The notes: a model not told the origin generated them from the letters alone. Shown: positions 12,560 through 59,806, counted from the stretch's first letter. The stretch: 64,000 nucleotides of DNA from Acidobacteriota bacterium (GCA_965263035.1 OZ253580.1:6134071-6198070), one strand, 5' to 3'. Translations and numbers: made by a program.

Positions 12560-12582
12560 TACGTATAATATACTTTATCGTA
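12560..12582. repeat. Site B copy 1 (attI-like position, next to the recombinase start)
   Basis: TACGTATAA-TATACT-TTATCGTA; contains TATAAT at 12564-12569. Confidence 0.7.
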
Positions 12583-12800
12583 ATCTATACCATGCTCCGG
12601 ACCTTCTGATTTTGCGCGCCGGCCGATGTCCGGAGCCGTCCTCTCCTTCCCGCATCCGGTGATCCCACTGGGGTGAAAAACGAGGTCAGAGACCCATCCA
12701 TTGAGTCGGTGGCACCGTTTACACTTCGGCCAGAAAGGATTCCCCCGCATCCCTGAATACTGTTGCCGACGCTACCGTCTACCTGGAGGAACCGTTCCAG

Positions 12801-15083
12801 ATGTCAGTCCACTTTCCGAAGCCCTCGCATCTTAGCCGTCACTCCACGACTTCTCTAAGGGTCCTCGTTTTGAGCTTGGGCCTGCTGGCCACGCCAGAGG
12901 CAGCCACGGCTGAGATCGTCCCCGTCTGCGACCGGACCCCAGAGGTGCGCGACGAGATCGTGAAGCTCGTGCCAGAAGTCAGCGATTGTGCCGATGTGAC
13001 CGAGTCGCACCTAGCCGAGATTAGACGGGATTTCTTTCACGGCGGCCTGGAGCGAGTATACGTCTTAGGGTTTCCCAGTACTCGCAGGCTTCCCCCGCCC
13101 CCACTCAGAGAGTTGAAAGTGGGCGATTTTTCTGGACTTTCTTCACTGCGCACACTCTATTTGGATCGCACTGGATTGATGACCCTGCCGGAAGAGATTT
13201 TCTCCGGCCTCTCCTCCCTGGAAGCTCTCCTCCTGGGTAACAATGGGCTGAGCACCCTGCCGGCGGAGGTCTTCTCCGGCCTCTCCTCCCTGGAGACGCT
13301 CTACCTGCATAACAATGGGCTGAGCACCCTGCCGGCGGAGGTCTTCTCCGGCCTCTCCTCCCTGGTATATTTCCGCCTGGATGGCAACCTGGCGGCTCCC
13401 CTACCTGTCAACGTTTCATTGGAGTGGGTTGATCCCGGCCGATTCCAGGCCAGAGCGCCAACAGGCGCGCCCTTTGAGATCCACCTTCCTATAACTGTAA
13501 CCAACGGCATGCTTCACAGGGGGGCGTCCCATCTCACGATTCCCGCAGGGCGGGAATCCAGCGACGTGCTTTCGGTATCTCGACAGCCCGGAACGACCTC
13601 GCCGGTCACCGTCGAGATTGCACAATTCCCGGAGAAACCTGTGCGCCACATCGGTTACGAGCTGGTCAGACCCTCTTTGCCCCTGACTTTACTGACACCG
13701 CTTTCTCTGGACTTCCCCCATTTCGCCAACGGGGCGGCCATCACCTCCGAGTTGGTGATCGTGAATGTCGCGGCCACCCCCCTCCAGCCGGCCCTCTACT
13801 TCTTCGACAGAGAGGGAGACCTCATGGCCCCAGCATCCATGGTAGACGTCGGGGAAGACTGGTTCATCCGGTCCGACGGAGCCTTGACCGTGAGGAAGGA
13901 AATAGAGCCCCTGGGAGAGCTCACGATCTCGACCCACGGGCGAGGACCGTTGGTGACCGGCTCGGCGAGGGCCCTGGCCGACGGTCCCATAGGCGGGGTC
14001 TTGCGCTTTGACAGCCCGGATATCGGCGTCGCCGGGGTGGGAACGGGGTCCCCCTCACCCGACGCCATCTTCCCCGTGCGCCGCCAGGAATCCGGAATCA
14101 ACACCGGGGCGGCGATTCGGAATCTGGGAGACGATCCAGTGACCGTCCAATGCCAACTAATGCAAGATGGCCAGGTCTTGGAAGAGAGGGACATTCCCCT
14201 GGCCGGCGAGGGGCAGACCGCCCGGTTCATCGACGAGTTGTTCCCTGCGACCGATACGTTGGACTTTGTGGGATCGGTGCGCTGCACCGAATCCGAAGGC
14301 GGCCTGTTCACCGGCGTGGCTTTGGAGATGGATTTCCAGAACCGGGTGTTCACCACCTTGCCTGTAGTCCCCGTTCCGCCGATGCGGACCCAGGATTACA
14401 CGCAACTGCACTTCGCCCATTTTGCCAACGGTGCCTCCATCACTTCCGACCTGGTATTCGTGAACGTGGCCAACACGGCCGTGGCGCCGGCCATCTATTT
14501 TTACGATGGCTCAGGCCGTCTCATCGCCCCGGAAATGGTGGTGGACGTCGGGGAAGATCTCCAGGTCCGGATGGACGGATCTCTGACCGTTCAGGCGGAC
14601 GTGGCCCCGCTGGGGGAACTCACGGTCTCCACCCACGGCCGGGGGAATCTGGTGACCGGGTCGGTGAAAGTCATCGCCAATGGTCCCATCGGTGGATTCC
14701 TGCGCTTCGACAACCCCGAGATCGGAGTCGCGGGGGTCGGGGCCAGCGGGGCGGTCCAGGACGCGATCTTCCCGGCTCGACATCAGGCGGGAGGAATCCG
14801 CACGGGAGTGGCCATCCGCAATCTGAAGCCGGCCGCCATCGAAGTCAGCTGCCAACTGATGCAAAACGGCAGGGGTGTGGAAGAGAAGGAAATCCCTCTG
14901 TCCGGCAATGGGCAGACGGCCCAGTTCATCCACGAGTTGTTCACCAAGACCATCACAGCCGACTTTGTGGGATCGGTGCGCTGCACCGCCTCAGAGGACG
15001 GGAGGTTCACCGGATTGGCGCTGGAGATGGACGAGGACAACCGCATCTTCACCACCTTGCCCGTGGTGCCGGTCCGGCGATGA
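12801..15083 (+). CDS. Secreted LRR protein with two constant C-terminal ~230-aa domains (family I)
   Basis: Signal-like N-terminus, PVCDRT..V.DCADVT cap, typical-class LRRs (LSTLPAEVFSGLSSL), 2x LDFPHFANG...NRIFTTLPVVP. Confidence 0.88.
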   Translation: MSVHFPKPSHLSRHSTTSLRVLVLSLGLLATPEAATAEIVPVCDRTPEVRDEIVKLVPEVSDCADVTESHLAEIRRDFFHGGLERVYVLGFPSTRRLPPPPLRELKVGDFSGLSSLRTLYLDRTGLMTLPEEIFSGLSSLEALLLGNNGLSTLPAEVFSGLSSLETLYLHNNGLSTLPAEVFSGLSSLVYFRLDGNLAAPLPVNVSLEWVDPGRFQARAPTGAPFEIHLPITVTNGMLHRGASHLTIPAGRESSDVLSVSRQPGTTSPVTVEIAQFPEKPVRHIGYELVRPSLPLTLLTPLSLDFPHFANGAAITSELVIVNVAATPLQPALYFFDREGDLMAPASMVDVGEDWFIRSDGALTVRKEIEPLGELTISTHGRGPLVTGSARALADGPIGGVLRFDSPDIGVAGVGTGSPSPDAIFPVRRQESGINTGAAIRNLGDDPVTVQCQLMQDGQVLEERDIPLAGEGQTARFIDELFPATDTLDFVGSVRCTESEGGLFTGVALEMDFQNRVFTTLPVVPVPPMRTQDYTQLHFAHFANGASITSDLVFVNVANTAVAPAIYFYDGSGRLIAPEMVVDVGEDLQVRMDGSLTVQADVAPLGELTVSTHGRGNLVTGSVKVIANGPIGGFLRFDNPEIGVAGVGASGAVQDAIFPARHQAGGIRTGVAIRNLKPAAIEVSCQLMQNGRGVEEKEIPLSGNGQTAQFIHELFTKTITADFVGSVRCTASEDGRFTGLALEMDEDNRIFTTLPVVPVRR

Positions 15084-15123
15084 CCTGCCGGGAATAGCTG
15101 GAGTTGGCGACTCTCTTTAGGAC

Positions 15124-15147
15124 GTCCGTTAACTGAAATTATCGGAC
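15124..15147. repeat. Site A copy 1
   Basis: GTCCGTTAA-CTGAAA-TTATCGGAC, followed by the conserved GGGAAAAGGGAGG...GAATCAGCCCC tail. Confidence 0.85.
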
Positions 15148-15475
15148 GGTCCCCCGGGAAAAGGGAGGATGTCGGGGGGGTGCGAATCAGCCCCAAGCTG
15201 CCCGAAAACATGGGTCAGAAGAAGACGGCTCGTCCCCGTCATTTTTCATCCCTCTTCGTCGCTGAGACTCAGGATCAGCAGCTCAGAAATGGCTGGAGTG
15301 GGCTCCATTCCAGCCGCGGGATGTCCGCTCGGATTTACTCCTCTGGCCAAGTCACGGACCCGATCTTCCCGAAACCGACGTCGTTGGCAGGCCAGACTTC
15401 GATGCGGCGAACGACCACCGACACTCAGCGCATGGCTCGATCGCAAAATGTGGAGAACGCCACTATCATTCGGCC

Positions 15476-16987
15476 ATGAGACAAATACTGCTAGCTGTAT
15501 TCCTGCTGGCCCCGCTCGCCCGAGAGGTTCAGAGCAAGGACCAGACCGATCCACCCTATGCGGGCACCGTCTGGATCGACCCGGACATCATCACACCATC
15601 AGATCCGACTGCGCTCGTGAGCGTGACGGATGCCGGACGGGGACAACGGACGATGTTCGACCTGCGGGTCAAGGACTGGATCGTGGTCAACGCCTATTTG
15701 TTCATGGCCCGATTTGATGATGGCCTGACCGCGGAGATTCAGGTCAACCCAGAGTTCGGCAGTGCATCGGACGCGATGGTGGAAGCAAGCAAATATGGGA
15801 GATCCATCGGCCAATTGCCGACGCTACTTCGAACCAATGTCGAGACGGTCTGGATCCATAAAGGAAATGCGCCTCTCGGGGGTGGAAACAACAGTATTCT
15901 CATCCATACAGATTTTCCGGACGAGTATTTGGAGGAGGGATTGGTCCACGAGGGGGCGCACACTTCCCTGGACCCACCCTGGATGGGGATTGTCAACGCC
16001 GTCGATTGGCGCGCCGCCCAGACGGCCGATGATAACTTCATTTCCGACTACGCACGAGATCATCCGGACCGAGAAGACATCGCCGAGTCGTTCCTGCCGT
16101 ACCTGGCTGTCCGATATCGTTCGGCTCGAATCTCCCGATCTTACGAGCGGACAATATTGGAGACGATGCCGAATCGGATCGCTTACCTTGACCGACTTCT
16201 CCAGGCTCAATCGGACAACGCGTTGCATCCAATCACGTTGGACCTTCGACAGTATCTGAGCTTTGCGCATTTCGGGAATGGAGGGTCCATCACCTCGGAC
16301 CTGGTGTTAGTGAACGTGGAGCCCTCGGCGACTTACCCGGCCATCTACTTCTACGATCGAATGGGTGAACTCATCGACCCCGAATCGGTGGTGGACGTGA
16401 CGGAAGATCTGGAAGTCCGGGAGGATGGAGCGTTGACCGCCCGGACGGGGATTGAGCCTCTGGGTGAACTGGTGATTTCGACCCATGGACGAGGGAAGTT
16501 GGTGACCGGATCGGTGACGGTGTTCTCCGACATCGTGCGCTCTAATCTCTGGGGCGACAAAAACCGAGAGGACGCGGGCGGCGCGGCCCGCATCGGCGGG
16601 GTCCTGCGGTTCGACGCCCCGTCCCTGGGCGTGGCCGGCGTGGGGGCCAGTGCGCCCGTAAACGACGTCATTTTCCCGGCGCGCCGCCAAGAGGGCGGAA
16701 TCAACACCGGAGCCGCAATCCGGAACCTGGGAGAGAACCCGATCGAAGTGAGTTGCCAATTGATGAAAAAAGGCGCGGTATTGGAGATGAAGGACATTTC
16801 ACTGGCCGGTAACGGCCAGACGGCCAAGTTCATCCACGAGTTGTTCACCCAGACCGATACGTCCGATTTCGTCGGGTCGGTTCGTTGCACCGCTCCTGAT
16901 GGTGAACGATTCACCGGAATCGCCCTGGAGTTGGATGATAGAAACCGGATCTTCACTACCTTGCCAGTGGTGCCCATCCAGCGATGA
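15476..16987 (+). CDS. Secreted zincin-like metallopeptidase with one constant C-terminal domain (family I)
   Basis: Signal peptide, HEGAH plus downstream EDIAES, then LSFAHFGNG...NRIFTTLPVVPIQR. Confidence 0.82.
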   Translation: MRQILLAVFLLAPLAREVQSKDQTDPPYAGTVWIDPDIITPSDPTALVSVTDAGRGQRTMFDLRVKDWIVVNAYLFMARFDDGLTAEIQVNPEFGSASDAMVEASKYGRSIGQLPTLLRTNVETVWIHKGNAPLGGGNNSILIHTDFPDEYLEEGLVHEGAHTSLDPPWMGIVNAVDWRAAQTADDNFISDYARDHPDREDIAESFLPYLAVRYRSARISRSYERTILETMPNRIAYLDRLLQAQSDNALHPITLDLRQYLSFAHFGNGGSITSDLVLVNVEPSATYPAIYFYDRMGELIDPESVVDVTEDLEVREDGALTARTGIEPLGELVISTHGRGKLVTGSVTVFSDIVRSNLWGDKNREDAGGAARIGGVLRFDAPSLGVAGVGASAPVNDVIFPARRQEGGINTGAAIRNLGENPIEVSCQLMKKGAVLEMKDISLAGNGQTAKFIHELFTQTDTSDFVGSVRCTAPDGERFTGIALELDDRNRIFTTLPVVPIQR

Positions 16988-17180
16988 CCTGTCGAGAGTA
17001 ACTGCAGACGGTGGTCAGAAGGCACTAGGATGTTGTCTTCTGGATTTTGGAGGATGGGGAGTCGATAGCGATCGGTCAGAAAGCTGTTGATCCGGCCTTC
17101 TCAGGCGGAGGAAGGATCAGCCCCGAACTGGCCGGAAACATGGGCTAGAAGAAGAGGCCCAGACCCCTCTCGGAGGGTCC

Positions 17181-17211
17181 AGAGTACGATAATTGCACTT
17201 TATCGTACTCT
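17181..17211. repeat. Site B copy 2
   Basis: Perfect 12-bp inverted repeat AGAGTACGATAA-TTGCACT-TTATCGTACTCT. Confidence 0.88.
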
Positions 17212-17420
17212 CCACCACGCTCCTGACTGCCTCGGGAGAGCGTCCCTCGGCATCGGTCTGGAAACCGCTGTCGCCTCTCTGGTGGACGTCGCCCGCCGGT
17301 ACCGGTGGCCTGAGCCACCCCTTCGGCAAGTCGTTTCCGAGTTTTGGTCCCTGGGGCGGCGGGCTGGTATTCTCCAAGGCACGCCATGTCCACTCGTTCC
17401 AGGCGGCAGCAGGAGTCCGC

Positions 17421-20400
17421 TTGATCAGTCCTCTACTCGGTTCATTCTCGGTTCCGTTTTTTGCCTGGTGGCTGTTTTTCGTCCTGTCGCCACCGCAAAC
17501 CGGCGGCCCCTCGTCAGAGCACGGGCGCCGGACGGACGACTCGATCGCACCTCAGGCGCAGGAACCGGGGGAGACGATTCTGTACTTCCCGGATTACGTG
17601 GATGGGGGCGGCTGGTCGGTGCAGCTGGTGCTCAGCAACGTCGACCCGGAGACCGCGGCCGAGGTTCGGGTGGATGTCTACGACCCGGACGGACAGCCGG
17701 TCCGGGATCTGTTCGATTCCGATTTGACGTTGGAAATCCCCTCACTGGGCAGTCGAGTCTTGAGAAGCGCCGGCTCCGGAGCCCTTCGGCGAGGGTGGAT
17801 CGAGGTCCAGACCCGTTCGGCCGCAGTGAGTGGATTGTTGACCTACCGAGACACCCAATCGGGGATCGAAGTCGGCGTCAAACCCGTTGCGTTGGGACAA
17901 CGGTTCGCTTTGTTCGTGGAGGAATCGCCGACGGTCGGCGCCGGAGTCGCCGTGTACAAGACGGACGCCGCGGCCCGCGTCGAGCTTCGAATCCGCAACG
18001 AGGAAGGCCACGACCCCATGGAGGGAGGGGTCGTCCGCTGGGGGGATTTCCGCCAAGCGGCTCGGACGCTTCCGGAATGGTTCGATGTCCCCGGGGTCGA
18101 CACGGAATTCCTGAGGGATTTTCGCGGCCTGTTGTTCCTGGAGACCGAGGACGATTCCCGGTTCGCCCCGCTGGGGTTGCGGTTCGGGAAGGGAACCTCT
18201 TCGCTTTCGGCGGTACCGGCGATCCGGACCCAGAGTCAGGAACCTCAAGAGGCGGCCCTGGTCTTTCCCGACTACGTGGATGGCGGCGGCTGGTCGGTGC
18301 AGTTGGTGCTCAGCAACGTCGACCCGGATGCTGCGGCCGAGGTTCGGGTGGATGTCTACGACCCGGACGGACAACCGGTCCGGAATCTGCTCGATTCCGA
18401 TTTGACGTTCGAGGTTCCGAGCCAGGGCAGTCGAGTCTTGAGAAGTGCCGGCTCGGGCGCCATTCGGCGAGGTTGGATTCAGGTCGAGACCGATGCGGCC
18501 GCAGTCGGTGGACTGTTAACCTACCGAGACGCCCGAACGGGGATCGAGGTCGGCGTCGAGCCCATCCGGTTGGGGAATGAATTCGCTCTGTTCGTGGAGG
18601 AATCGGAGACGATCGGGGCGGGTCTGGCCCTCTTCAACCCGGAGGCGTCATCCAGGATCGAACTGAGGCTCCGCGACGAGGAAGGCAACGATCCGTTGGA
18701 CGGAGTGTACGTCCCCTGGAGAGACTTCCACCAGGCGGCGCGCACACTCCCGGAATGGTTCGACGTCGAAGGCGTGGATACGGGATTTCTGAGGGACTTT
18801 CGCGGTCTCCTGTTCCTGCGAACGGAGGACGAATCCGGGTTCGCCCCGCTGGGGCTGCGGTTCGGGAAGAGGTCCTCGTCGCTCTCGGCGGTGCCGGCGA
18901 TTCGGATCCCGGAGGGAGGCGGGATCGACGGCGGCCAGGCCCCGCCCCCGACGGTGACGCTTTCGGCATCGCCGCCGTCGATCGATCGGGGCCAGAGCAC
19001 GACGTTGACCTGGTCGTCCACGAATGCGGAGAGCGCCGAGATCACTCCGGACATCGGCGGGGTGCCGACTTCGGGCACGCGGAAGGTGTCGCCGAACGTG
19101 ACCACGACCTACCGCATCACGGCGACGGGAGCCGACGGACAGACGGCGACGGCATCGGCGACGGTGACGGTGGCCGTTTCCGAGCGGGCGGCGCTGAGGG
19201 CGCTGTTCGATGCGCTGGGCGGATCGGGTTGGAGCCACAGTAACAACTGGCTGACGGACACTCCCCTGGGCGACTGGTACGGGGTCGAAGTCGATAGCCA
19301 GGGGCGGGTGATCGGACTGCGGATGGCGGTCTGGGTCGATACTGAAGACGGTGGAAGAGAAAAACTCGGGAACGGATTGACCGGGGTGATCCCGCCGGAA
19401 CTGGGTTCGCTCCCCCACCTGAGGGTCCTGGATCTCAGTCATAACCGACTGGAGGGGCCGATCCCGGCGCAACTCGGGAGCCTCTCCAGCCTGCAGGTGC
19501 TGGACCTCAGTGGGAACCAGCTGACGGGCCCGATCCCGCCCGAACTGGGGAGCCTTTCCAACCTGCAGCGGCTGAACCTCGGGGGGAACCGGCTGACGGG
19601 CCCGATCCCGCCCGAACTCGGTTCGCTTTCCAATCTGCAGTGGCTGTTCCTCAGTGGGAACCAGCTGACGGGCCCGATCCCGCCCGAACTCGGTTCGCTT
19701 TCCAATCTGCAGTGGCTGTTCCTCAGTGGGAACCAGCTGACCGGTCCGATCCCGCCCAGTTTTTTGCAGCTTGAGCAACTAGGATATTTCTATTTCTCCG
19801 ATAATTTGGGACTCTGCGCCCCCGGTACAACCGGTTTCGTCGATTGGCTGAAAGGGATCGAGCAACACGACGGTCCGTACTGTAACCAGTCCGACGTGGC
19901 CGTGATCGAGTCCCTCTACCAAGCCACCGGCGGAGCGAATTGGACGAACTCCGACGGCTGGCTCGGGGAGGGCGCCGTGAGTGATTGGTACGGGATCCGA
20001 GCCGACTCCCTGGGACGGGTGACGGGTCTCGATCTGAGTGACAACGGACTGGAGGGCCGGGTTCCGGGCAACTTGGGCCAACTGTCGCAGATGACCGAGT
20101 TGCGGATCGGTGGCAACGCCCTTTCCGGCCGGTTGCCGCTCATCTTGACCCGCCTCCCTCTTCACGAGTTCCATTACGCGGACACCGAGTTGTGTGCTCC
20201 GACCGAGGCGTCGTTCCAGGCTTGGCTGAACGCCATTCCGTCGCACGACGGAACCAACATGGATTGTGCGCCGCTCACGGACCGCGACATCCTCGTGTCG
20301 CTCTACGACGCAACTGGCGGGCCGGACTGGACCAACAACGAGAACTGGCTGACCGATACGTCGCTGGGAGATTGGTCCGGGGTCGAGGTCGATGGCCGAG

Positions 20401-22718
20401 GTCGAGTGATCGGGCTACGCTTCTCCCAAAACGGTCTAGCGGGCCCGATCCCGCCCGAACTCGGTTCGCTTTCCAATCTGCAGTCGCTGTCCCTCGGGGG
20501 GAACCAGCTAGCGGGCCCGATCCCGCCCGATCTCGGTTCGCTTTCCAATCTGCAGAGGCTGGACCTCAGTGAGAACCAGCTGACGGGCCCGATCCCGCCC
20601 GATCTCGGTTCGCTTTCCAATCTGGGGTCGCTGTACCTCTGGGAGAACCAGCTGACCGGTCCCATCCCGCCCGATCTCGGTTCGCTTTCCAATCTGCGGT
20701 GGCTGGACCTCGGGGGGAACCAGCTAACCGGTCCCATCCCGCCCGATCTCGGTTCGCTTTCCAATCTGGGGTCGCTGTACCTCTGGGAGAACCAGCTGAC
20801 CGGTCCCATCCCGCCCGATCTCGGTTCGCTTTCCAATCTGGGGGCGCTGTACCTCAGTGGGAACCAGCTGACCGGTCCCATCCCGCCCGATCTCGGTTCG
20901 CTTTCCAATCTGCGGACGCTGTACCTCAGTGGGAACCAGCTGACCGGTCCCATCCCGCCCGATCTCGGTTCGCTTTCCAATCTGCGGGCGCTGTCCCTCG
21001 ATGGGAACCAGCTGACCGGTCCCATCCCACCGGAACTGGGCGGAATGGAGCACCTGCGCACCCTGTCCCTGTCGAGGAACGCCGAGATGTCCGGAGCACT
21101 GCCCGCCCGCCTGACCGATCTGCTCCGTCTCGAAGCGCTTCTGGCTGGGGACACCCGTCTTTGCGTCCCCTCCGACGCACGCTTCCAGAACTGGCTGGAG
21201 CGGGTCTGGAAACGGCGGATTGCCCCTTGCTTCCGCGACGGCCTGCCGAAGGCGTACTTGACCCAGGCCGTGCAGTCACGAGAGTTTCCGGTGCCGCTTG
21301 TTGCCGGCGAGGACGCCCTGCTGCGGATGTTCGTGACGGCCCCGCGAGCGGGCGGGCATAAGATGCCCCCGGTCCGGGCCCGATTCTACGTCGATGGACG
21401 GGAAACGCACGTGTTAGACATCCCGGGAAAGTCCACTCCGGTACCGACCGGAGTGGACGAGGGAGCGCTTTCGGCTTCGGCCAACGCCGAAGTTCCAGGA
21501 GAGATCGTGCAGCCAGGCCTTGAAATGGTGATCGAGGTCGATCCGGAGGGGATACTGGACCCTGGACTGGGGGTGACGAAGCGCATTCCCGAGGAGGGCC
21601 GCCTCGCGGTGGACGTCCAAACGATGCCTCTTTTCGACCTGACGCTGATTCCGTTCCTCTGGAGCCAGGATCCCGATTCGTCGATTGTGGACTTGGTCGA
21701 GGCTATGGCCGAGGACGCCGAGGGCCACGAAATGCTCTGGCAGACCCGAACGCTGCTGCCGATCGGCGAGCTGGAGGTAACCGCCCACGAACGGGTTCTG
21801 AGCACGAGCAACAATGCGTTCGACCTGCGCGCTAACGCAGGGGCCATCCGGGCCATGGAGGGCGGAACGGGTTATTACATGGGATTGATGTCAAGGCCCG
21901 TCACGGGCGCGTCGGGAGTCGGGTTCATCGCCGGCTGGGTGAGTTTCTCGATTCCTTACGTCGCCACCATCGCACACGAACTCGGCCATAACCTGAGTCT
22001 TCACCACGCGCCGTGCGGGGGCGCCGGCGGTCCAGACCCGTCGTATCCCCAGACCGACGGTTCCATCGGTGCGTGGGGGTACGATTTGCACGAGGGCGGA
22101 CAACTGGTGCCGCCGTCACGACCCGATCTGATGAGCTATTGTGGCCCCTATTGGATTAGCGATTACCATTTCACCAACGCGCTCCGGTACCGGTTGCACA
22201 CCGCCGCCAGTGGCGGACCGTCGTCCCTGGTGGCCGCCCCGGCGAGATCCCTCCTGCTGTGGGGCGGCGTGGACGCCGGAGGGACACCGTTCCTGGAACC
22301 GGCGTTCGTGGTCGAGGCCCCGGCGTCACTGCCCCGTTCCACCGGTGAGTACGAGATCGTCGGACGAACCGCCGACGGAGACGAGTTGTTCTCGCTTCCA
22401 TTCCAGATGCCAGAGGTGGCCGACGGAGACGGGAGTTCCTCCTTCGCCTTCGTCCTTCCCGTACAGCCCGAATGGCCGGAATCCCTGGCCAGTATCACCC
22501 TCTCCGGACCCGGCGGTTCGGCCACGCTGGATGACAAGACCGACCGTCCGGTGACCATCCTGCGCAATTCCCGGACCGGTCAGATTCGCGGCATCCTGCG
22601 CGATGGGTCAGCCGCTGCCCTGGCCCGCGATGATGCGGTCTCCGCGTTGTCTCGGGAGCCGGACATGGAGGCGTTGAACAGCCGCGGAATCCCGGATTCG
22701 GAAGACTGGACGCGATAG
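17421..22718 (+). CDS. Large secreted protein: 2x constant N-terminal domain, Ig/PKD-like domain, three LRR blocks, M66-like metallopeptidase (family II)
   Basis: ORF open from 17193; start chosen by alignment to the 37348 paralog. 2x YFPDYVDGGGWSVQLVLSN; LTGPIPPELGSLSNL repeats; AYLTQAVQ; HELGHNLSLHHAPCG; DLMSYC. Confidence 0.88.
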   Translation: MISPLLGSFSVPFFAWWLFFVLSPPQTGGPSSEHGRRTDDSIAPQAQEPGETILYFPDYVDGGGWSVQLVLSNVDPETAAEVRVDVYDPDGQPVRDLFDSDLTLEIPSLGSRVLRSAGSGALRRGWIEVQTRSAAVSGLLTYRDTQSGIEVGVKPVALGQRFALFVEESPTVGAGVAVYKTDAAARVELRIRNEEGHDPMEGGVVRWGDFRQAARTLPEWFDVPGVDTEFLRDFRGLLFLETEDDSRFAPLGLRFGKGTSSLSAVPAIRTQSQEPQEAALVFPDYVDGGGWSVQLVLSNVDPDAAAEVRVDVYDPDGQPVRNLLDSDLTFEVPSQGSRVLRSAGSGAIRRGWIQVETDAAAVGGLLTYRDARTGIEVGVEPIRLGNEFALFVEESETIGAGLALFNPEASSRIELRLRDEEGNDPLDGVYVPWRDFHQAARTLPEWFDVEGVDTGFLRDFRGLLFLRTEDESGFAPLGLRFGKRSSSLSAVPAIRIPEGGGIDGGQAPPPTVTLSASPPSIDRGQSTTLTWSSTNAESAEITPDIGGVPTSGTRKVSPNVTTTYRITATGADGQTATASATVTVAVSERAALRALFDALGGSGWSHSNNWLTDTPLGDWYGVEVDSQGRVIGLRMAVWVDTEDGGREKLGNGLTGVIPPELGSLPHLRVLDLSHNRLEGPIPAQLGSLSSLQVLDLSGNQLTGPIPPELGSLSNLQRLNLGGNRLTGPIPPELGSLSNLQWLFLSGNQLTGPIPPELGSLSNLQWLFLSGNQLTGPIPPSFLQLEQLGYFYFSDNLGLCAPGTTGFVDWLKGIEQHDGPYCNQSDVAVIESLYQATGGANWTNSDGWLGEGAVSDWYGIRADSLGRVTGLDLSDNGLEGRVPGNLGQLSQMTELRIGGNALSGRLPLILTRLPLHEFHYADTELCAPTEASFQAWLNAIPSHDGTNMDCAPLTDRDILVSLYDATGGPDWTNNENWLTDTSLGDWSGVEVDGRGRVIGLRFSQNGLAGPIPPELGSLSNLQSLSLGGNQLAGPIPPDLGSLSNLQRLDLSENQLTGPIPPDLGSLSNLGSLYLWENQLTGPIPPDLGSLSNLRWLDLGGNQLTGPIPPDLGSLSNLGSLYLWENQLTGPIPPDLGSLSNLGALYLSGNQLTGPIPPDLGSLSNLRTLYLSGNQLTGPIPPDLGSLSNLRALSLDGNQLTGPIPPELGGMEHLRTLSLSRNAEMSGALPARLTDLLRLEALLAGDTRLCVPSDARFQNWLERVWKRRIAPCFRDGLPKAYLTQAVQSREFPVPLVAGEDALLRMFVTAPRAGGHKMPPVRARFYVDGRETHVLDIPGKSTPVPTGVDEGALSASANAEVPGEIVQPGLEMVIEVDPEGILDPGLGVTKRIPEEGRLAVDVQTMPLFDLTLIPFLWSQDPDSSIVDLVEAMAEDAEGHEMLWQTRTLLPIGELEVTAHERVLSTSNNAFDLRANAGAIRAMEGGTGYYMGLMSRPVTGASGVGFIAGWVSFSIPYVATIAHELGHNLSLHHAPCGGAGGPDPSYPQTDGSIGAWGYDLHEGGQLVPPSRPDLMSYCGPYWISDYHFTNALRYRLHTAASGGPSSLVAAPARSLLLWGGVDAGGTPFLEPAFVVEAPASLPRSTGEYEIVGRTADGDELFSLPFQMPEVADGDGSSSFAFVLPVQPEWPESLASITLSGPGGSATLDDKTDRPVTILRNSRTGQIRGILRDGSAAALARDDAVSALSREPDMEALNSRGIPDSEDWTR
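20436..21030 (+). repeat. Eight near-identical 72-bp LRR-coding tandem repeats
   Basis: GGTCCCATCCCGCCCGATCTCGGTTCGCTTTCCAATCTG-(variable)-AACCAGCTGACC repeated with period 72. Confidence 0.92.
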
Positions 22719-22763
22719 GAGGGACGGATCGTCCTCCACTCGGATAACAAACTCCGTAGACTG

Positions 22764-22791
22764 ACGTCCGTTAACTGAAATTGACGGACGT
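22764..22791. repeat. Site A copy 2
   Basis: ACGTCCGTTAA-CTGAAA-TTGACGGACGT. Confidence 0.88.
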
Positions 22792-22878
22792 TCTCTGGGA
22801 AAAGGGAGGATGCCGGGGGGTGCGAATCAGCCCCAAGCCGACCGGAAACACGGGTCAGAAGAAGACGGCCTGTCCCCG

Positions 22879-23331
22879 TCAGGAGGGATCAGGATACGAT
22901 AATTGCACTTTATCGTAATGAGGAGCGACTGGATCGAGGACCTGGAGCCCCAGTGATCCACCGGCGCCAGACCAGATCGAACTATTTGAGGTCTTCTCGG
23001 GAAATAGATTGCCGATTCGTGGAGACTGATCCCCAACCGTCGGACCGGAAGGCCATCGATGGCCTTCCACCCGGAGTCCCCAGGGCCAGTCAACTGCCCC
23101 TGGAACCGAAGGTTCCAACACACGCGGCCCATCCTCGGCGGCCCTCTGGAGACCCATGTAGACCCTGTTCACGCGCCCAGGGAAGTAAATCAGCAGGAGG
23201 TCACCTTTCTTCACATGCTTCCTTAACCGGCGGCCTGTGTCCTCGCTGAAGTGCTGATGCCGGAGATCGTTGCAAATCCACTCCTGCTTTGGGTTTTCGT
23301 TGGCCCCTTTCATCGCTTGCCAGATAGCCAT
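22879..23331 (-). CDS. Hypothetical protein, possibly EVE/PUA-like; its 3' end reads through site B3
   Basis: 150-aa ORF with VKKGDLLLIY; the last residues (HYDKVQLSYPDPS) are encoded by the site B element itself. Confidence 0.5.
   Translation of the reverse strand: MAIWQAMKGANENPKQEWICNDLRHQHFSEDTGRRLRKHVKKGDLLLIYFPGRVNRVYMGLQRAAEDGPRVLEPSVPGAVDWPWGLRVEGHRWPSGPTVGDQSPRIGNLFPEKTSNSSIWSGAGGSLGLQVLDPVAPHYDKVQLSYPDPS
22895..22917. repeat. Site B copy 3
   Basis: TACGATAA-TTGCACT-TTATCGTA. Confidence 0.88.
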
Positions 23332-23377
23332 TGACGGTCCTCTCCTCTTGACATTCCTGCCCAGTCGAAAATACTCT

Positions 23378-23399
23378 CCGGGTAACGTACTTTACCGTA
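23378..23399. repeat. Site B copy 4 (hybrid type)
   Basis: CCGGGTAA-CGTACT-TTACCGTA, followed by the same ~220-bp leader that follows B1 (12583-12800). Confidence 0.7.
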
Positions 23400-23617
23400 A
23401 TCTAAACCACGCCCCTGACCTTCTGATTTTGCGCGCCGGCCGACGTCCGGAGCCGTCCTCTTTTTCCCGCATCCGGTGAGCCCATTGGGGTGAAAAACGA
23501 GGCCAGGACCTGATCCGCCGAGTCGGGGATCCGTTCTACACTTCGGCCAGAAGGAGCTTCCCCGCATCCCTGAATACTGTTGCAGGCGCTCCCATCCACC
23601 TGGAGGAACCGTTCTGG

Positions 23618-26600
23618 ATGTCAGTCCACACCCCGAAGACCTCGCATCTTTGCCGCCGCCGATCCCCGACTTTTCTCCCGGCCATTGCCCTGACCGTGGG
23701 TCTACTGGTCACAACGAAGCACGCCACGGCGCAGATCGTCCCCGTCTGCGACCGGACCCCGGACGTGCGCGCCGAGATCGTGAGGCTTGTGCCCGGAGTC
23801 AGCGATTGTGCCGACGTGACCGAGGCGCATCTGGCTGCGATTGAGGGAGAGTTTTTCCACGGCGGCTGGTATGACGCTTTGCCCACTTGGGCTGGCGGAC
23901 CCCACCTCGCGCGGGGGGCCCCTCCACAGGTAGAAAAGTTGAGAGCCGGAGATTTTTCTGGTCTCTCCTCGCTGAAAATTCTCTATTTGGACCGAACTCC
24001 ATTAGCCAGTTTGCCCCAGGGAGTCTTCGCTGGCCTTTCCTCGTTGGAAGAGCTCCACCTTGATCGCACTCAGTTGAGCACGTTGCCGGAGGGGGTCTTC
24101 GTCGGCCTCTCCTCACTGAAACGGCTCAATCTGTTCCAAAGCCAGTTAACTATCCTGCCGGAGGGGGTCTTCGCCGGCCTCTCCTCATTGGAACGCCTTA
24201 CCCTGAGTCACAATCAATTGGACACTCTGCCAAAGGGGATTTTCTCCGACCTGGCCTCGTTGAAGGAACTCGATCTGAATAACAATGATCTGATCAGTCT
24301 CCCAGTCAACGTCTTTTCGAGTCTCTCCTCCCTGGAACGGCTCAATCTGAATCACAATTTGCTGGACACTCTGTCACAGGGGGTCTTTGCTGGACTCTCT
24401 GCGCTCGAATCACTCAACCTGTCGGCCAATCAACTGACCCAGCTACCCGCTGGGGTCTTTGCCGTCCTCTTCTCGCTGGAAGGTCTCTCGCTGAGTCACA
24501 ATCAACTGACCCGTCTACCGGTCGGGGTCTTTGCTGGACTCTCTGCGCTCAAATCACTCTCCCTTTCGACCAATCAACTAACCCAGTTACCCGCTGGGGT
24601 CTTCGCCGGACTCTTCTCGCTGGAAGGTCTCTCGCTGAGTCGCAATCAATTGACCCATTTACCGGTTAGGGTCTTTGCTGGACTCTCTGCGCTCGAATCA
24701 CTCGACCTGTCGGACAATCAACTGACCCAGCTACCCGCTGGGGTCTTTGCCGTCCTCTTCTCGCTGGAATATCTCTCGTTGAGTCGCAATCAATTGACCC
24801 ATTTACCGGTTGGGGTCTTCTCAGGTCTTTTTGCGCTTAAAAAGCTCCTTCTGGATCACAATCGCCTGACCCATTTTCCGGAGGGCATCTTCTCCGGCCT
24901 CTCCAGTCTAAGAGAGGTGGAGGCAGAGAGAAACGCCGCGACCCCCTTGGGCATTCGGGTTTCACTGGAGCGGGTGGGAAGAGGCCGGTTCAAAGCCAGG
25001 GCTGACACTGGAGCCCCCCGCACTATCTTCGTGACGGTTTCTGTCGTCAATGGTGTCATCAATGGTGGCTCAAACAGCATCGTTATTCCCACTGGAAGCA
25101 TGGAAAGCTCCGTCGTCACGGTCTCCCGCCACCCAAGAACATCCGCCGCCGTCTCCGTGGATATCGACAGCTTTCGCCGGAACCACTATCTTTATTCCTA
25201 TCCCTATCTTCCGGGCCTCGAACCCGTCAGGTCCCCCGATTTGCCGCTGGTCGTTTTGGAGCCTGGTGTTGATCCGGTTGTTGATCTGACCTTTGCACAT
25301 TTTGGGAACGGAACATCGATCCGATCCGAACTCGTGCTGGTGAACCTGGGCTCGCTCCCGCTTCTTCCCGCCATCTTCTTTTACGACAAGGCGGGACACC
25401 TCATTGACTCAACTTCGGTGGTGGATATCCGGAACAATCTGTATCTCCGAGCCGACGGAGGCTTGGGCGTGTGGACAGCCATCCCCCCCCTGGGAGAGCT
25501 TACGATCTCCACCCATGGGAGAGGAGATTTGATCACGGGATCGGCAAGGGTTGTGGCAGCCGGTCCCATGGGCGGGGTCTTGCGCTTTGACGGCTCGGAT
25601 CTCGGAGTCGCCGGAGTCGGGTCCAGCCCGGCCCTCCAAGACATCGTCTTCCCCGTGCGCCGCCAACTCTCAGGAGTCAATACCGGAGCAGCATTCCATA
25701 ACCTGGAGCCCCATCCCACGATTGTGAACTGCCAACTGATGCAAGACGGAGAGATGCTTGAAGAAACGGCGGTTCTGCTGGCCGCCAACGGTCAAACAGC
25801 TCGGTTCATTGATGAGATGTTCTCTGCAACCGAGACATCGAGCTTTGTAGGGTCAGTGCGCTGTGCTGCTCCTGGAGATGAGTTGTTCACCGGCTTGGCC
25901 CTGGAGATGGACTTCCAGAACCGAGTGTTCACCACCTTGCCGATGGTCCCTGTTCCGGCGGGGCGGACACAAGACTACACGCAACTGCACTTCCCTCATT
26001 TCGCCAACGGTTCCTCCATCACTTCCGACCTGGTGTTCGTGAACGTGGCCGCAGGACCGATTCACCCGGCCATCTATTTCTACGATCGTGCAGGCCGTCT
26101 CATTGCCCCGGAATTAGTGGTGGACATCGGGGAAGACCTTCAGGTCCGCGCGGACGGAGCCCTGACCATGCAGGCGGAAGTGGCCCCGCTGGGAGAACTC
26201 ACGATCTCCACGCACGGGCGGGGAGATCTGGTGACCGGGTCGGTGAAAGTCATTGCCGATGGTCCCATCGGTGGGTTCCTGCGATTCGACAACCCCGAGA
26301 TCGGAGTCACTGGGGTCGGCGCCAGTGAGGATGTCCACGCCGCCATCTTTCCAGTTCGACACCAAGCGAGGGGAATCCGTACCGGAACGGCAATCCGCAA
26401 TCTGCAGGACAATTCGGTGCCAGTCACATGCCAACTGACACAGTCTGGCAGGGTGCTGGAAGAGAAGAAATTTCGTCTGCCGAGCAACGGACAGACCACC
26501 CGGTTCGTTGACGAGTGGTTCCCTGAGGCCGTTACATCCGACTTTGAGGGAGCGGTGCGTTGTACCGTACCCGACCGCGGTAGGTTCACCGGATTGGCTC

Positions 26601-26662
26601 TGGAGATGGATGCCGACAACCGCATCTTCACAACGTTGCCGGTGGTGCCGTTTCGGCGTTGA
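23618..26662 (+). CDS. Secreted LRR protein (~14 LRRs) with two constant C-terminal domains (family I)
   Basis: PVCDRT cap, long L..LP.GVF.GL..L array, 2x constant domain. Confidence 0.9.
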   Translation: MSVHTPKTSHLCRRRSPTFLPAIALTVGLLVTTKHATAQIVPVCDRTPDVRAEIVRLVPGVSDCADVTEAHLAAIEGEFFHGGWYDALPTWAGGPHLARGAPPQVEKLRAGDFSGLSSLKILYLDRTPLASLPQGVFAGLSSLEELHLDRTQLSTLPEGVFVGLSSLKRLNLFQSQLTILPEGVFAGLSSLERLTLSHNQLDTLPKGIFSDLASLKELDLNNNDLISLPVNVFSSLSSLERLNLNHNLLDTLSQGVFAGLSALESLNLSANQLTQLPAGVFAVLFSLEGLSLSHNQLTRLPVGVFAGLSALKSLSLSTNQLTQLPAGVFAGLFSLEGLSLSRNQLTHLPVRVFAGLSALESLDLSDNQLTQLPAGVFAVLFSLEYLSLSRNQLTHLPVGVFSGLFALKKLLLDHNRLTHFPEGIFSGLSSLREVEAERNAATPLGIRVSLERVGRGRFKARADTGAPRTIFVTVSVVNGVINGGSNSIVIPTGSMESSVVTVSRHPRTSAAVSVDIDSFRRNHYLYSYPYLPGLEPVRSPDLPLVVLEPGVDPVVDLTFAHFGNGTSIRSELVLVNLGSLPLLPAIFFYDKAGHLIDSTSVVDIRNNLYLRADGGLGVWTAIPPLGELTISTHGRGDLITGSARVVAAGPMGGVLRFDGSDLGVAGVGSSPALQDIVFPVRRQLSGVNTGAAFHNLEPHPTIVNCQLMQDGEMLEETAVLLAANGQTARFIDEMFSATETSSFVGSVRCAAPGDELFTGLALEMDFQNRVFTTLPMVPVPAGRTQDYTQLHFPHFANGSSITSDLVFVNVAAGPIHPAIYFYDRAGRLIAPELVVDIGEDLQVRADGALTMQAEVAPLGELTISTHGRGDLVTGSVKVIADGPIGGFLRFDNPEIGVTGVGASEDVHAAIFPVRHQARGIRTGTAIRNLQDNSVPVTCQLTQSGRVLEEKKFRLPSNGQTTRFVDEWFPEAVTSDFEGAVRCTVPDRGRFTGLALEMDADNRIFTTLPVVPFRR

Positions 26663-28625: not shown

Positions 28626-28649
28626 CTCCTTTAACTGAAATTAACGGCC
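28626..28649. repeat. Site A copy 3
   Basis: CTCCTTTAA-CTGAAA-TTAACGGCC. Confidence 0.78.
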
Positions 28650-28775
28650 GTCCCCCGGAAAAAAGGGAGGCTGGCGGCGTTTCTCCGCTTCTCTCGGAGG
28701 TCGTGAATCAGCCTCGATCTGCCCGCAAAACGGTCCAGAAGAAGATGGCCAGACGCCCCCAGAAAAGGGTCAGCT

Positions 28776-28798
28776 TACAATAAGATCAACTTATCGTA
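28776..28798. repeat. Site B copy 5
   Basis: TACAATAA-GATCAAC-TTATCGTA. Confidence 0.8.
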
Positions 28799-29566: not shown

Positions 29567-29692
29567 ATGTCGAGAAAAGTCGCAGACGTAGCCACATTTC
29601 AGAAATACCTCCAGCGCGTGATAGACCGCACTCTCCATCACGGCCACAACGTGCAGGCGATCCTCCTCACCCTGGCTGTGTCCGTTAACTGA
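29567..29692 (+). pseudogene. Truncated VCH_CASS14-like (integron cassette protein family) N-terminus
   Basis: MSRKVADVATFQKYLQRVIDRTLHHGHNVQAILLTLA resembles, from memory, MALTVKDVNILSQYISGVMARADHHAGNVEEIALALA. The ORF runs into site A4. Confidence 0.55.
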
Positions 29693-29704
29693 AATTAACG
29701 GACA
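29679..29704. repeat. Site A copy 4
   Basis: Perfect TGTCCGTTAA-CTGAAA-TTAACGGACA. Confidence 0.9.
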
Positions 29705-32879: not shown

Positions 32880-32903
32880 GTCCGCTAATTGAAATTAACG
32901 GAC
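32880..32903. repeat. Site A copy 5
   Basis: GTCCGCTAA-TTGAAA-TTAACGGAC; the element's tail is replaced by foreign DNA right after the arm. Confidence 0.82.
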
Positions 32904-36989: not shown

Positions 36990-37013
36990 ATCCGTTAACT
37001 GAAATTAACAGAC
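36990..37013. repeat. Site A copy 6
   Basis: ATCCGTTAA-CTGAAA-TTAACAGAC; tail present, but site B is deleted near 37090. Confidence 0.82.
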
Positions 37014-48770: not shown

Positions 48771-48801
48771 AGGGTACGATAATTCCACTTTATCGTACCC
48801 T
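48771..48801. repeat. Site B copy 6
   Basis: Perfect AGGGTACGATAA-TTCCACT-TTATCGTACCCT. Confidence 0.88.
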
Positions 48802-49131
48802 AGACCACGCCCCTGACTGCCCCGTGTTCTGCGGTGCCTGCCCCGGGAGAGCGTCCCTCGGCATCGGACTGGACAACCGCTGTCGCCTCGCCGCTGGACA
48901 TCGCCCGCCGGGACCGGTCGTCTGAGCCACCCCTTCGGCAAGTCGTTTCCGAGTTTTGGTCCCTGGGGCGGACGGCTGGTATTCTCCAAGACCGCCGGAC
49001 GGGTGGGGGAGGGCCCGGGACACACTATGTCCACTCGTTCCAGGCGGCAGCAGGAGTCCGCTTGATCAGTACTCGGATATTCTAGGGACTGGAGAGAGGA
49101 GATTAGCCCACATTTGAAGCCGATAAATAAA

Positions 49132-49372
49132 ATACTAAGACTGATCCGCATAGCTACTGCCGTGCTCGTGGCGGGTGGCCTTGCCGTCGTGGTGCTCTCG
49201 GCACAGGACGATCTCGACACGCTCCGCTAAGCCGCCGAGCAGGGTGACGACGTCGGGCAGTTCAGCCTCGGGTTCATGTACCACGAGGGGAAGGGCGTCC
49301 CGAAGGACGATGTCGAAGCGGTACGCTGGTTCCGACTCGCCGCCAAGCAAGGCTCCGCCAAGACGCAATTCT
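49132..49372 (+). pseudogene. Sel1-like repeat protein fragment
   Basis: ...SAQDDLDTLR*AAEQGDDVGQFSLGFMYHEGKGVPKDDVEAVRWFRLAAKQG with an internal stop. Confidence 0.8.
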
Positions 49373-49513
49373 GCGAGGAGGCAGTCCCATGAAGGATCGA
49401 GGCCACCCCCGTTCGCGCGCGGTTGGTTCGGTGCGCCCCGTGATGGGGGACGACCCTGGTCGCCCGCCACCCGCGGCTTTGTCGAGGCGTTGCCGAAGAA
49501 GACCGAAGGCGCT

Positions 49514-56412: not shown

Positions 56413-56436
56413 GTCCGTTAACTGAAATTAAAGGAC
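56413..56436. repeat. Site A copy 7
   Basis: GTCCGTTAA-CTGAAA-TTAAAGGAC. Confidence 0.85.
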
Positions 56437-58335: not shown

Positions 58336-58754
58336 TAGCCTGCACTGCCCCGTCGCTGAAGAGGACTCTGCGTCGCCTCCCTTGTGGTGGAGCCTTTTCC
58401 TCCACTGGATCGCGGAAACGTACTTTGCCGACAATAATTTGCCCCCCACCGAGCCGGCTCGCAGGAGGCCCGTAGCGCTTCCGGACCTGGCGCTGGAGCG
58501 CCAGGCGTCGGGCCGTTTCGCCGGTCCCGGGCCGATTTCGGCCGATCCCGAAAAAAGAGGCACCCTCAGAGGGCGTGTGGGGTGCGTCCGGACTAAGGGT
58601 GAGGCATAGGCCTCTGGCGCTTGCGGGCCGGGAACGCGCCGCACTCCGGGACCGCCTGGGACAGCTCGAAGGGCGCATGGCCCGCCTCAACGAGACATCG
58701 GACAAAACAATGGGCGATTCGCGGTCGGGTGCCCAGTCTTGTTCGCCCGACGCG

Positions 58755-59497
58755 CTACCTTCGGACTCCGCTCCGCCCGCTAACGTGATTGAGCCGGTGC
58801 TCGAAGTACCGGCGGAACACTTCGTTCTCGGGATACGCTGCCGGATCGGCCCAGATTGCCCCAAGGCGTCCCACCAATCCGGCAATCCAATCCGCTGCCT
58901 GGAGGGTCTGATACCGGTGGCTTTCCAGATGGAACGGCGGCTCGATAAGACGCCGGCGGCGTTCCGTCCTCGCATACATGCTCCGTGCCGCCTCGGTGAT
59001 CAGGGCAGATCGTTGATCGTGTTCATCGAGAATCAGGAAAAAATCCCGGGCGGATTACAATCCTCTTCGCAAAATCCATCAATCCGCTTGATTGCCTCAA
59101 GAAATACCCGTGTGTAGAGCCTGTTCGAATTGTGCGCCCTTGGCGGCGCAGTCTTTTTGAGACCGACATAGAAGACGAATCCGCCGAGCGCTTCGATCTT
59201 GTTGAACAGCCGGTTGGTGAAATTCCTGAGTTCTGCGGACCGCGTCACGTTCTTGACAGTGTAGAGGCTCGCCCTCTTCTCTTCCCATAGGGCCGGATGT
59301 TTCCCCGACCGGTTGATCTCAAATTCGAGAAGCTCGCACTTGCGCCGGAAGAACCAGGTTCCGAACCCACGCACCACTTCGGAAGCGAGGACGAAGCCCG
59401 CCAGGCCAAACACTGGACTGTCCTTGTACCTTCGGTCTCGCCTGCTGACGTAGGGGCCGATATGCCCGAATTCATCAAGGTATGCGAAATACGTCAC
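58755..59497 (-). pseudogene. DUF3800-domain protein, frameshifted near 59040
   Basis: YFAYLDEFGH at the N-terminus; LESHRYQTLQAADWIAG in the downstream frame. Confidence 0.75.
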
Positions 59498-59643
59498 CGA
59501 CGGGGTCTCCGGAAACACGAAAGCCCGTGCCGGAGCACGGGCCTCGGAAAGAGAGCAAGACAAGCTTGCATCTCATAGATAACTATACCTCTTAAAAAGA
59601 TGACCTGTCGAGAATGGCTGGAGACGGCGATACTCTGGAGAAC

Positions 59644-59667
59644 GTCCGTTAACTGAAATTAACGCAC
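59644..59667. repeat. Site A copy 8
   Basis: GTCCGTTAA-CTGAAA-TTAACGCAC. Confidence 0.85.
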
Positions 59668-59783
59668 CTTCTGCGGGAAAAGGGAGGATTTCACCGTTTC
59701 TCTCGGGGGCTGTGGATCGGACCTGAGCCGACTGAAACATGATCCGAGAGAAGCGGCCCAGATGGCTCCAGGAGGGATCTGGA

Positions 59784-59806
59784 TCCAACAAGATCAACTT
59801 ATTGGA
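59784..59806. repeat. Site B copy 7
   Basis: TCCAACAA-GATCAAC-TTATTGGA, at the expected position in the A-B element. Confidence 0.72.

Follow-up and report, generated by a model that had tools for sequence, protein, structure and literature searches.

The window analysed here is the final 64 kb of the single 6.2-Mb contig of an Acidobacteriota bacterium (OZ253580.1:6134071-6198070; 62% G+C), and two public runs labelled sponge metagenome contain a small share (0.05–0.06) of the window. It holds an array of large leucine-rich-repeat (LRR) protein genes with an interspersed family of genes for ~500-aa proteins, together with seven copies of a short palindromic element, site B. We consider it probable that these seven palindromes are double-stranded DNA (dsDNA) core recombination sites of a lineage-specific Xer-like recombinase family and that they bound LRR-gene cassettes. 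A sequence-only reading had described the seven palindromes, and all were found in their places with the spacers it gave, including its grouping into TTGCACT/TTCCACT, GATCAAC (twice) and the 6-bp TATACT/CGTACT; the two copies with 6-bp spacers do have left flanks unrelated to the element, and three details of the arms were corrected. Comparisons were made within a genus set of nine genomes, this one (G000) and eight congeners. The seven B sites are as follows.

12560..12582, plus strand: TACGTATAA-TATACT-TTATCGTA, with a 6-bp spacer and one extra base in the left arm
17181..17211, plus strand: 12-bp arms AGAGTACGATAA / TTATCGTACTCT, spacer TTGCACT, with the 3' half of a linker on the left
22895..22917, plus strand: 8-bp arms, spacer TTGCACT
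23380..23401, plus strand: CCGGGTAA-CGTACT-TTACCGTA, with a 6-bp spacer, symmetric only over GGTAA/TTACC
28776..28798, plus strand: TACAATAA-GATCAAC-TTATCGTA, with one arm mismatch
48771..48801, plus strand: 12-bp arms, extending to 17 bp with one mismatch, spacer TTCCACT
59784..59806, plus strand: TCCAACAA-GATCAAC-TTATTGGA, with one arm mismatch

The copies have the geometry of recombinase core sites, with inverted arms of 8–12 bp (5 bp at 23380) around spacers of 6 or 7 bp, all of them asymmetric. The pattern TACGATAA-N6-7-TTATCGTA with up to two mismatches occurs at 14 sites in this genome and at 0–6 in each of the eight congeners, and the reversed pattern, searched in the same genomes as the control for chance, occurs in none of the nine. 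A pattern anchored on the arms and blind to the spacer returns 26 sites against 2 for its control; nine of the 26 lie in the window and 25 fall into five spacer classes. A chance origin of the B sites is excluded. In total the genome holds ~28 B sites and ~23 sites of a second palindrome family, A (~50 together), concentrated in variable islands. The spacer classes recur between species on differing arms, and hybrid sites, in which one spacer is combined with arms of different half-site types, are common and occur in several genomes. To the right, most B sites have the flank nYCTnnnCCACGCCCCTGAC in common, the strict pattern matching 13 of the 28. To the left, a linker sequence can be recognised by eye at all 14 sites with 7-bp spacers (9 of the 14 by the strict pattern) versus none of the 14 with 6-bp spacers. 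A co-oriented A site follows within 8.3 kb to the right of 18 of the 28 B sites. A reading of the spacers as sigma-54 or -10 promoter elements, checked by eye only, was not supported. The genome also has several palindromes of the form TCCCAGAA-N7-TTCTGGGA.

Site A has the form TCCGTTAA-CTGAAA-TTAACGGA, with arms extendable to ~15 bp (GAGAACG... / ...CGTTCTC) and a spacer conserved across the genus; like B, it is probably a core site. Among its copies, one in G007 is changed in both arms (TCTGTTAA...TTAACAGA), and both single-change intermediates also exist. In the window A lies 39–48 nt past the stop codon of five large open reading frames (ORFs), and B stands at the head of conserved leaders, ~200–400 nt upstream of LRR genes. 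Adjacent A and B sites are joined by a linker of ~105 bp with hairpins. Such junction modules (A, linker, B with a 7-bp spacer) lie at 22767-22917, 28627-28798 and 59645-59806, with others elsewhere in the genome, and complete A-linker-B units number ~6 in 6.2 Mb. Arrays begin with a leftward recombinase, after which B, leader, gene, A and linker follow in that order and then recur from B on, and the window contains the largest such array. Its remaining features are these.

15125, 22767, 28627 (degenerate), 29681, 32881, 36991, 56414 and 59645, plus strand: A sites of the window
12265..12553, minus strand: truncated and frameshifted remnant of an Xer-like recombinase gene, residues 1–96 of ~327, with its start codon 6 nt from site 12560
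12801..15083, plus strand: LRR cassette gene, 760 aa, with the shared C-terminal domain; matches Pfam LRR_8 and related families
15125..15146, plus strand: A site TCCGTTAA-CTGAAA-TTATCGGA, 41 nt past the stop, then part of a linker
15476..16987, plus strand: 503-aa gene without a Pfam or NCBIfam match, its product having the same C-terminal domain as the LRR proteins
17193..22718, plus strand: giant LRR cassette gene, its ORF open from within site 17181, with a likely start ~210 nt downstream of the site
22767..22917, plus strand: junction module, with A at 22767-22788, a 106-bp linker with hairpins, and B at 22895-22917 (TTGCACT)
22920..23377, minus strand: segment with a 150-aa ORF between two B sites, 96% identical to genome 2102443-2102899, where the gene continues
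23618..26662, plus strand: LRR cassette gene, 1014 aa
27088..28587, plus strand: gene of 499 aa, of the family sharing the C-terminal domain
28627..28798, plus strand: junction module, with a degenerate A at 28627-28648, a long-variant linker, and B at 28776-28798 (GATCAAC)
29681..29702, plus strand: A site with an unrelated left flank and part of a linker that runs directly into a cassette leader; the LRR gene 29858-32839 lies downstream
32881..32902, plus strand: A site 41 nt past the stop of an LRR gene, with an unrelated right flank
36991..37012, plus strand: A site and linker, B absent, upstream of the LRR gene 37348-42246
49175-56368: LRR/subtilase gene, 2397 aa, downstream of B site 48771
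56414..56435, plus strand: A site 45 nt past the stop of the 2397-aa gene
59645..59806, plus strand: geneless junction module, with the last ~46 nt of a cassette 3' end, A at 59645-59666, linker, and B at 59784-59806 (GATCAAC)

Since the right flank of site 32881 is unrelated, homology breaks at that site. The geneless module 59645-59806 is flanked on both sides by minus-strand genes. At 36991 the B site was lost by deletion between short direct repeats (CCA.GCCCCT), and the region is therefore generally plastic. Orthologues of the 503-aa gene (82–90% identity) were searched for a module downstream and none was found; the module is therefore not just a component of this family of genes.

The linker (22789-22894 and equivalents) folds into two or three hairpins with a possible paired change, GGGG..CCCC versus GAGG..CCTC, and has a long variant with ~25 extra nt at 28649-28775 and 59667-59783; a small ORF in the linker was rejected, its frame not being kept between copies. 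Upstream of three giant LRR genes lies a leader of ~330 nt that is 80–90% conserved (17212-17540, 37090-37350 and 48802-49175) and has no Rfam match; it is judged non-coding because an indel of 29 nt within it would shift any reading frame. The C-terminal domain common to the LRR and ~500-aa proteins spans ~240 aa (FAHFGNG...CQLMK.G...NRIFTTLPVVP), as at the gene 3' ends 14400-15083, 16300-16987, 27900-28587 and 47900-48577. It has no Pfam or NCBIfam match and may be a sorting or anchoring domain; of 38 loci encoding its relatives in other genomes, none had an A- or B-type site. The 150-aa ORF (22879-23331, minus strand), which is of no known family, is found at three loci, including genome 2102443-2102899 and 4195203-4195428, and its copy in the window breaks off precisely where B site 22895 has its right border.

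The remnant at 12265-12553 was recognised by tblastn with the recombinase paralogues of this genome, at 64–80% identity in two frames. Because it lies directly left of site 12560, the window array begins with a decayed unit of recombinase and site; site 12560 itself matches in type, down to the extra base, the sites fronting intact recombinase genes. The tyrosine-recombinase domain has 27 matches in the genome, and nine of these, with further fragments, form one paralogous family of ~326 aa, comprising seven full-length copies and two subfamilies that are 61–63% identical to each other. A B site with a 6-bp spacer lies 1–7 nt upstream of the ATG in all seven full-length copies. In every case the spacer is directed away from the gene, and beyond the site stands the usual B right flank, which leads into the downstream genes; homology between the paralogous recombinase loci is limited to the gene and ~50 bp upstream. 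The same arrangement was seen in five of six congener copies examined, and also in the subfamily-2 copy of G007. In other genera of the order, with proteins 54–67% identical, two of six loci have a clear ACGATAA-N6-TTATCGT at the start codon; the recombinases of these two, which come from two genera, are 65–67% identical, and the sites of the other four are degenerate or displaced.

Alignment of the recombinase to XerD (1a0p) reveals conserved Arg, Lys, His, Arg, His and Tyr positions, which we take to correspond to the catalytic residues of XerD, and judged by this intact set the recombinase looks active. Among NCBIfam models it scores best with XerD and XerC, in both cases under the cut-off, and the integron integrase model TIGR02249 gives 57–65 bits against a cut-off of 265, matching in the C-terminal part only. 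Site and protein vary together: subfamily 1 has sites of the form GATAA-TATACT/TATCCT/TATGCT-TTAT, and subfamily 2 has GGYAA-CGTACT-TTACC in all three of its copies. As the subfamilies carry different arms and different spacers, the contrast of GATAA/TTATC with GGTAA/TTACC is that of two recombinase-specific site classes. Elsewhere in the window, 678-785 (minus strand) encodes a 36-aa fragment of a different tyrosine recombinase family.

A reading of site B as chromosomal dif, a single site at the terminus, was rejected, since this genome has ~28 B sites. Relative to the antipode of dnaA, the recombinase-site modules are displaced by 1.0–1.1 Mb in G002 and G003, and they are also off it in G001; in G007 subfamily 1 is off the antipode and the subfamily-2 copy is ~0.14 Mb from it. 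One recombinase copy of G000 (5.547 Mb) coincides with the maximum of the GC skew, although between 5.5 and 6.0 Mb the skew curve is flat. The LRR array is located in a region rich in mobile elements, ~0.2 Mb from the antipode of dnaA. The palindrome TCCGATAA-TTCCCG-TTATCGGA was also considered as dif and rejected: in the four genomes in which both could be placed it lies 0.77–0.96 Mb from dnaA, and G000 lacks it at the equivalent position (2509.3 kb). It is present as a single copy in six congeners (G001:2579141, G002:2732083, G004:208931, G005:3851429, G006:C8:16711 and G007:C2:4141841), in a context that is conserved and syntenic over the three loci compared, and it may be an operator using the same half-site.

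Comparison of loci reveals flanks that change partners at the cores. The CGTACT core is the centre of a three-way mosaic: locus P (2914426) has a recombinase on its left and a flank, R1, on its right; locus Q (2102421, reverse strand) has the 150-aa gene on its left and R1 on its right; and window 23380 has the left side of Q (96% identity over 458 bp) with an LRR cassette on its right. Q matches P at 99.3% identity over 1473 bp beginning 4 nt left of the spacer, and throughout this mosaic the outer part of each arm segregates with its flank. Between species, G000 and G007 share 95% identity at the TauD locus as far as 12587, a stretch that takes in the recombinase remnant and site 12560. Beyond it the two diverge: to the right of the B site G007 has a cassette of ~0.8 kb before the next A site and G000 has a 2.5-kb LRR gene. 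The module 22767-22917 is 98% identical to genome 2107856-2108011, and on the right the homology does not continue past B. When B sites were compared in pairs (378 in all), six pairs had only the left flank in common, one had only the right, and none passed both thresholds. Read by eye, the A sites show the same one-sided flank breaks. These mosaics, taken as sequence comparisons, show that flanks have been exchanged at the cores between loci and between species, each arm moving together with its flank. Matches in a synteny comparison with five congeners over 10000-29999 are mostly paralogues at 65–90% identity, and the TauD locus alone was usable. Contigs from two runs of one sample join 12587 (the B6a-core word) to 22767 (A and linker), with a short side of 28–31 nt; this joint could be another locus or a rearranged form, and nothing is drawn from it.

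The sequence-only reading had proposed that the arms change in compensation to keep their symmetry, and that this symmetry is selected or homogenised by hairpin repair. The arm differences are real but lie mostly between site classes, rather than being repeated compensation within a class. For the symmetry statistics 94 sites, collected partly by their spacers, were gathered across the genus and reduced to 70 distinct sequences. Only 11 of the 70 are perfectly symmetric, and many combine two different half-site types. In the shuffle tests, which ignore the relatedness of sites, arm pairing is 0.81; redistributing the right arms over the whole set gives 0.72 (0 of 2000 shuffles reach the observed value), and shuffling confined to spacer classes gives 0.787 against 0.809 observed (11 of 2000). 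Within classes the excess pairing is small; by class, the observed pairing is reached in 566 of 2000 shuffles for A, 220 for B7b and 46 for B6, and B7a has no variation. Mismatches between the arms have no bias to G.T over A.C, with 5 G.T, 7 A.C and 34 others in B and 3, 7 and 18 in A. Folded as single-stranded DNA, sites 17181 (-9.7 kcal/mol) and 48771 (-14.2 kcal/mol) form strong hairpins, as does A site 22767 from its extended arms; 12560 and 23380 fold no better than shuffles, and the other three window copies are weak (-1.8 to -4.9 kcal/mol). Hairpin formation is therefore not the conserved property, given the few symmetric sites, the lack of wobble bias, the weak within-class pairing and the poor folding, and the proposed selection or homogenisation of the symmetry itself is not supported, on the same grounds. 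The conserved properties of the sites are half-site sequence and spacer class.

Of the options raised by the sequence-only reading, a dsDNA recombinase core whose spacers set partner compatibility fits what was found, namely recombinase adjacency, co-variation of subfamily and site, and breakpoints within the core. These observations stand together with the intact catalytic positions, the mosaics and the order of the array. From this point binding, cleavage positions, spacer compatibility and a shared enzyme for the A and 7-bp-spacer B sites are what we infer. Recombinase dimers would bind the two arms of a site, two sites with the same spacer would pair, and strands would be exchanged at the spacer borders; segments between sites, carrying LRR and other secreted-protein genes, would be excised, inserted or swapped. 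The spacer classes (TATACT, CGTACT, TTGCACT and GATCAAC, with CTGAAA for A) would set which sites can recombine, and the A and 7-bp-spacer B sites would use the same enzymes. The arms would be symmetric, and would differ between classes, because one paralogue-specific protein recognises both, and not because they pair in a hairpin. To the left of the first B of an array is a recombinase, and to the left of each later B is the linker belonging to the cassette before it, as expected from repeated insertion at a platform site.

Several observations weigh against recombination at these sites. The conserved 25–30 bp to the right of B are not accounted for by a core-site reading, and A, ~40–50 nt past stops, and B, in conserved leaders, are also placed as transcript-end and leader elements would be; a site 1–7 nt from a start codon could likewise be an autoregulatory operator. 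No recombinase gene was found directly beside a B site with a 7-bp spacer or beside an A site, so that any enzyme assigned to these is putative. Congeners G004 and G005 have the sites and recombinases as fragments only, and homologues on planctomycete plasmids (52–56% identity) have no such palindrome upstream. As the recombinase copy in the window is a pseudogene, copies in other parts of the genome may serve this array, or it may be a relic. All 7 B and 8 A sites of the window have the same spacer direction and are thus direct repeats, and because of this orientation switching by inversion is impossible in the window. Short contigs of four public runs over 11000-30999 break at repeats and gave no interpretable excision or inversion junction, and no event of ongoing recombination was directly observed.

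The positional observations are those that would be expected if both families were regulatory or transcript elements spread by gene-family duplication, B as an operator or 5'-leader stem-loop and A as a 3'-end stem-loop terminating or stabilising mRNA, an explanation we regard as unlikely. The B site beside a recombinase gene would then be an autoregulatory operator, and ordinary homologous recombination, acting on short patches of conserved sequence, would have made the mosaics. It would explain A at 39–48 nt past the stops of five large window ORFs, B in conserved leaders ~200–400 nt upstream of LRR genes, recombinase-proximal sites that overlap the necessary place of the recombinase promoter and ribosome-binding region, and the strong hairpins that extended arms give at 17181, 48771 and A site 22767. 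A promoter-like TTGACA-16-AATACT ends 5 nt left of site 23380, and a transcript could therefore begin in that palindrome; promoter-like matches as a whole, however, are at chance level (4 found, 3.6 expected), no A or B site in 12000-31000 has a terminator-like match, and the flanks of the sites show no T-run. Nor do the sites behave as structured RNA hairpins: pairing is not kept by compensatory or wobble changes, mismatches in B and A alike have no excess of G.T over A.C, the two copies with 6-bp spacers fold like shuffles and three more of the seven only weakly, and a search of Rfam with the window matched no family. For an operator it would be unusual that 25 of 26 sites found blind to the spacer fall into five spacer classes recurring between species on differing arms. 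The breakpoints of independent events fall within the 22-bp core, and the module 59645-59806 lies between minus-strand genes, both of which speak against the regulatory explanation.

Two further explanations account for the palindromes as mobile DNA of other kinds. The sites could be folded single-strand substrates like attC, their symmetry kept for hairpins in integron-type recombination, an option already raised by the sequence-only reading. The cassette-like layout with a recombinase at one end, the long arms of some copies (12–17 bp) and two class-level arm differences mirrored in both arms all recall such sites. Known attC sites, however, are conserved in folded structure and not in sequence, and here the sequence is conserved across species and foldability is not: 11 of 70 distinct sites are symmetric, two of the seven window copies fold clearly better than shuffles, hybrid arms are common and covariation within classes is weak. 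With a recombinase that is not an integron integrase (57–65 bits with TIGR02249, cut-off 265), we find this option unsupported and very improbable. Even less credence is given to a selfish non-autonomous repeat of the miniature inverted-repeat transposable element (MITE) or repetitive extragenic palindrome/bacterial interspersed mosaic element (REP/BIME) type, which would end in A and B and take no part in cassette exchange. The A-linker-B unit is compact (~150 bp), has sharp outer borders and several internal hairpins, and at 59645-59806 stands between unrelated genes, as such a repeat might. But complete units number only ~6 in 6.2 Mb and are confined to the LRR and variable islands, A and B also occur singly at fixed positions relative to genes and recombinase, and no target-site duplication was seen, although no systematic search was made. 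The two partial Y1_Tnp matches of the genome (3.48 and 2.48 Mb) are far from the islands, against ~50 A and B sites in all.

Recombination at duplex cores would also set the system beside, and apart from, several that are known, in a comparison with their published descriptions. The inner ATAA-N6-TTAT is typical of dif, and the B sites with 6-bp spacers have it. In Acinetobacter plasmids, pdif/dif modules are described as gene modules bounded by short Xer-type sites, with content that differs between related replicons (PMC6449649, PMC7399989), and the discrete modules, the short sites and the variable content are features shared by the system here. Unlike those modules, which are served by the housekeeping XerC/XerD pair, it has an apparently dedicated, multi-copy Xer-like paralogue encoded beside its site; its sites are chromosomal and near-palindromic, which suggests that one protein binds both arms; its cargo is LRR and other secreted-protein genes; and it has two site families, A and B, and 7-bp spacers. 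XerS/difSL, as described in PMC2731167 and PMC2965235, is a single recombinase genetically linked to its site, and a single Xer-like gene with its cognate site immediately adjacent is found here too. The recombinase-site modules here are, however, multi-copy and not terminus-specific, and because they head accessory-gene arrays they are not a chromosome-dimer resolution site.

In the Vpma, Vsp and Vsa systems of Mycoplasma (Xer1, Mbr or HvsR), inversions are described that move one promoter between surface-protein genes (PMC2268961). The likeness lies in a multigene family of surface proteins, recombination sites in conserved 5' untranslated regions and a tyrosine recombinase gene in the locus. 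In contrast to the inverted sites of those systems, the window sites are direct repeats, so that excision, insertion or exchange is expected and not inversion, and a second site family marks the 3' ends of genes. Integrons, described as an intI gene with an attI platform and attC cassettes (PMC3458562, PMC3053210), likewise have a recombinase at one end reading away from co-oriented cassettes, an adjacent platform site and a palindromic site after each cassette gene. Here the recombinase is not IntI, the sites are short, sequence-conserved cores of duplex type versus the structure-conserved folded attC, each junction consists of two sites and a linker, and the cassettes reach 7 kb and have long leaders. 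The system is different from all four of these.

A tRNA scan of the window found nothing, and the plasmid collection searched with the A-linker-B module gave no match. The window also holds a DDE_3 transposase gene (57131-58147, minus strand) and a DUF3800 gene (59033-59563, minus strand). Elsewhere in the genome the palindrome GGCCGTAA-GCAAGC-TTCCGGCC has seven copies (76909, 653455, 2483829, 2495023, 3695750, 4264433 and 4765438), one of them ~0.7 kb from a partial Y1-transposase match at 2482924-2483100; it and the Y1 gene may be a pair resembling REP and its associated tyrosine transposase (RAYT), unrelated to site B. An AT-rich word, TTTATAAA-TCAATAG-TTTACAAA, occurs at ~12 places (for example 35206, 166995, 669144, 2698953 and 4009657) and is probably an insertion-sequence end.

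We tentatively propose, as a possibility held less firmly than the core-site assignment itself, that this is an integron-like cassette system built from different parts, in which a self-contained recombinase platform, with a 6-bp-spacer site at its own start codon, would capture and reshuffle units of leader, gene, A, linker and B through duplex cores, with the spacer as a compatibility code and the eukaryote-like LRR surface proteins of sponge-associated Acidobacteriota as the cargo, and would so let the symbiont vary the proteins that face its host. Literature searches (supplements excluded) found no description of this system. If the sites proved to be only regulatory, the finding would be a conserved promoter/terminator module of a paralogous gene family. 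If the proposal holds, it would be a third gene-cassette design beside integrons and the Acinetobacter dif modules, and a recombinase with short sites in naturally orthogonal spacer classes could provide recombination tools. Sponge symbionts are rich in LRR and other eukaryote-like proteins thought to mediate interaction with the host, and a dedicated recombinase acting on spacer-coded sites at cassette borders would, if true, be a concrete mechanism for the expansion and diversification of such gene families.

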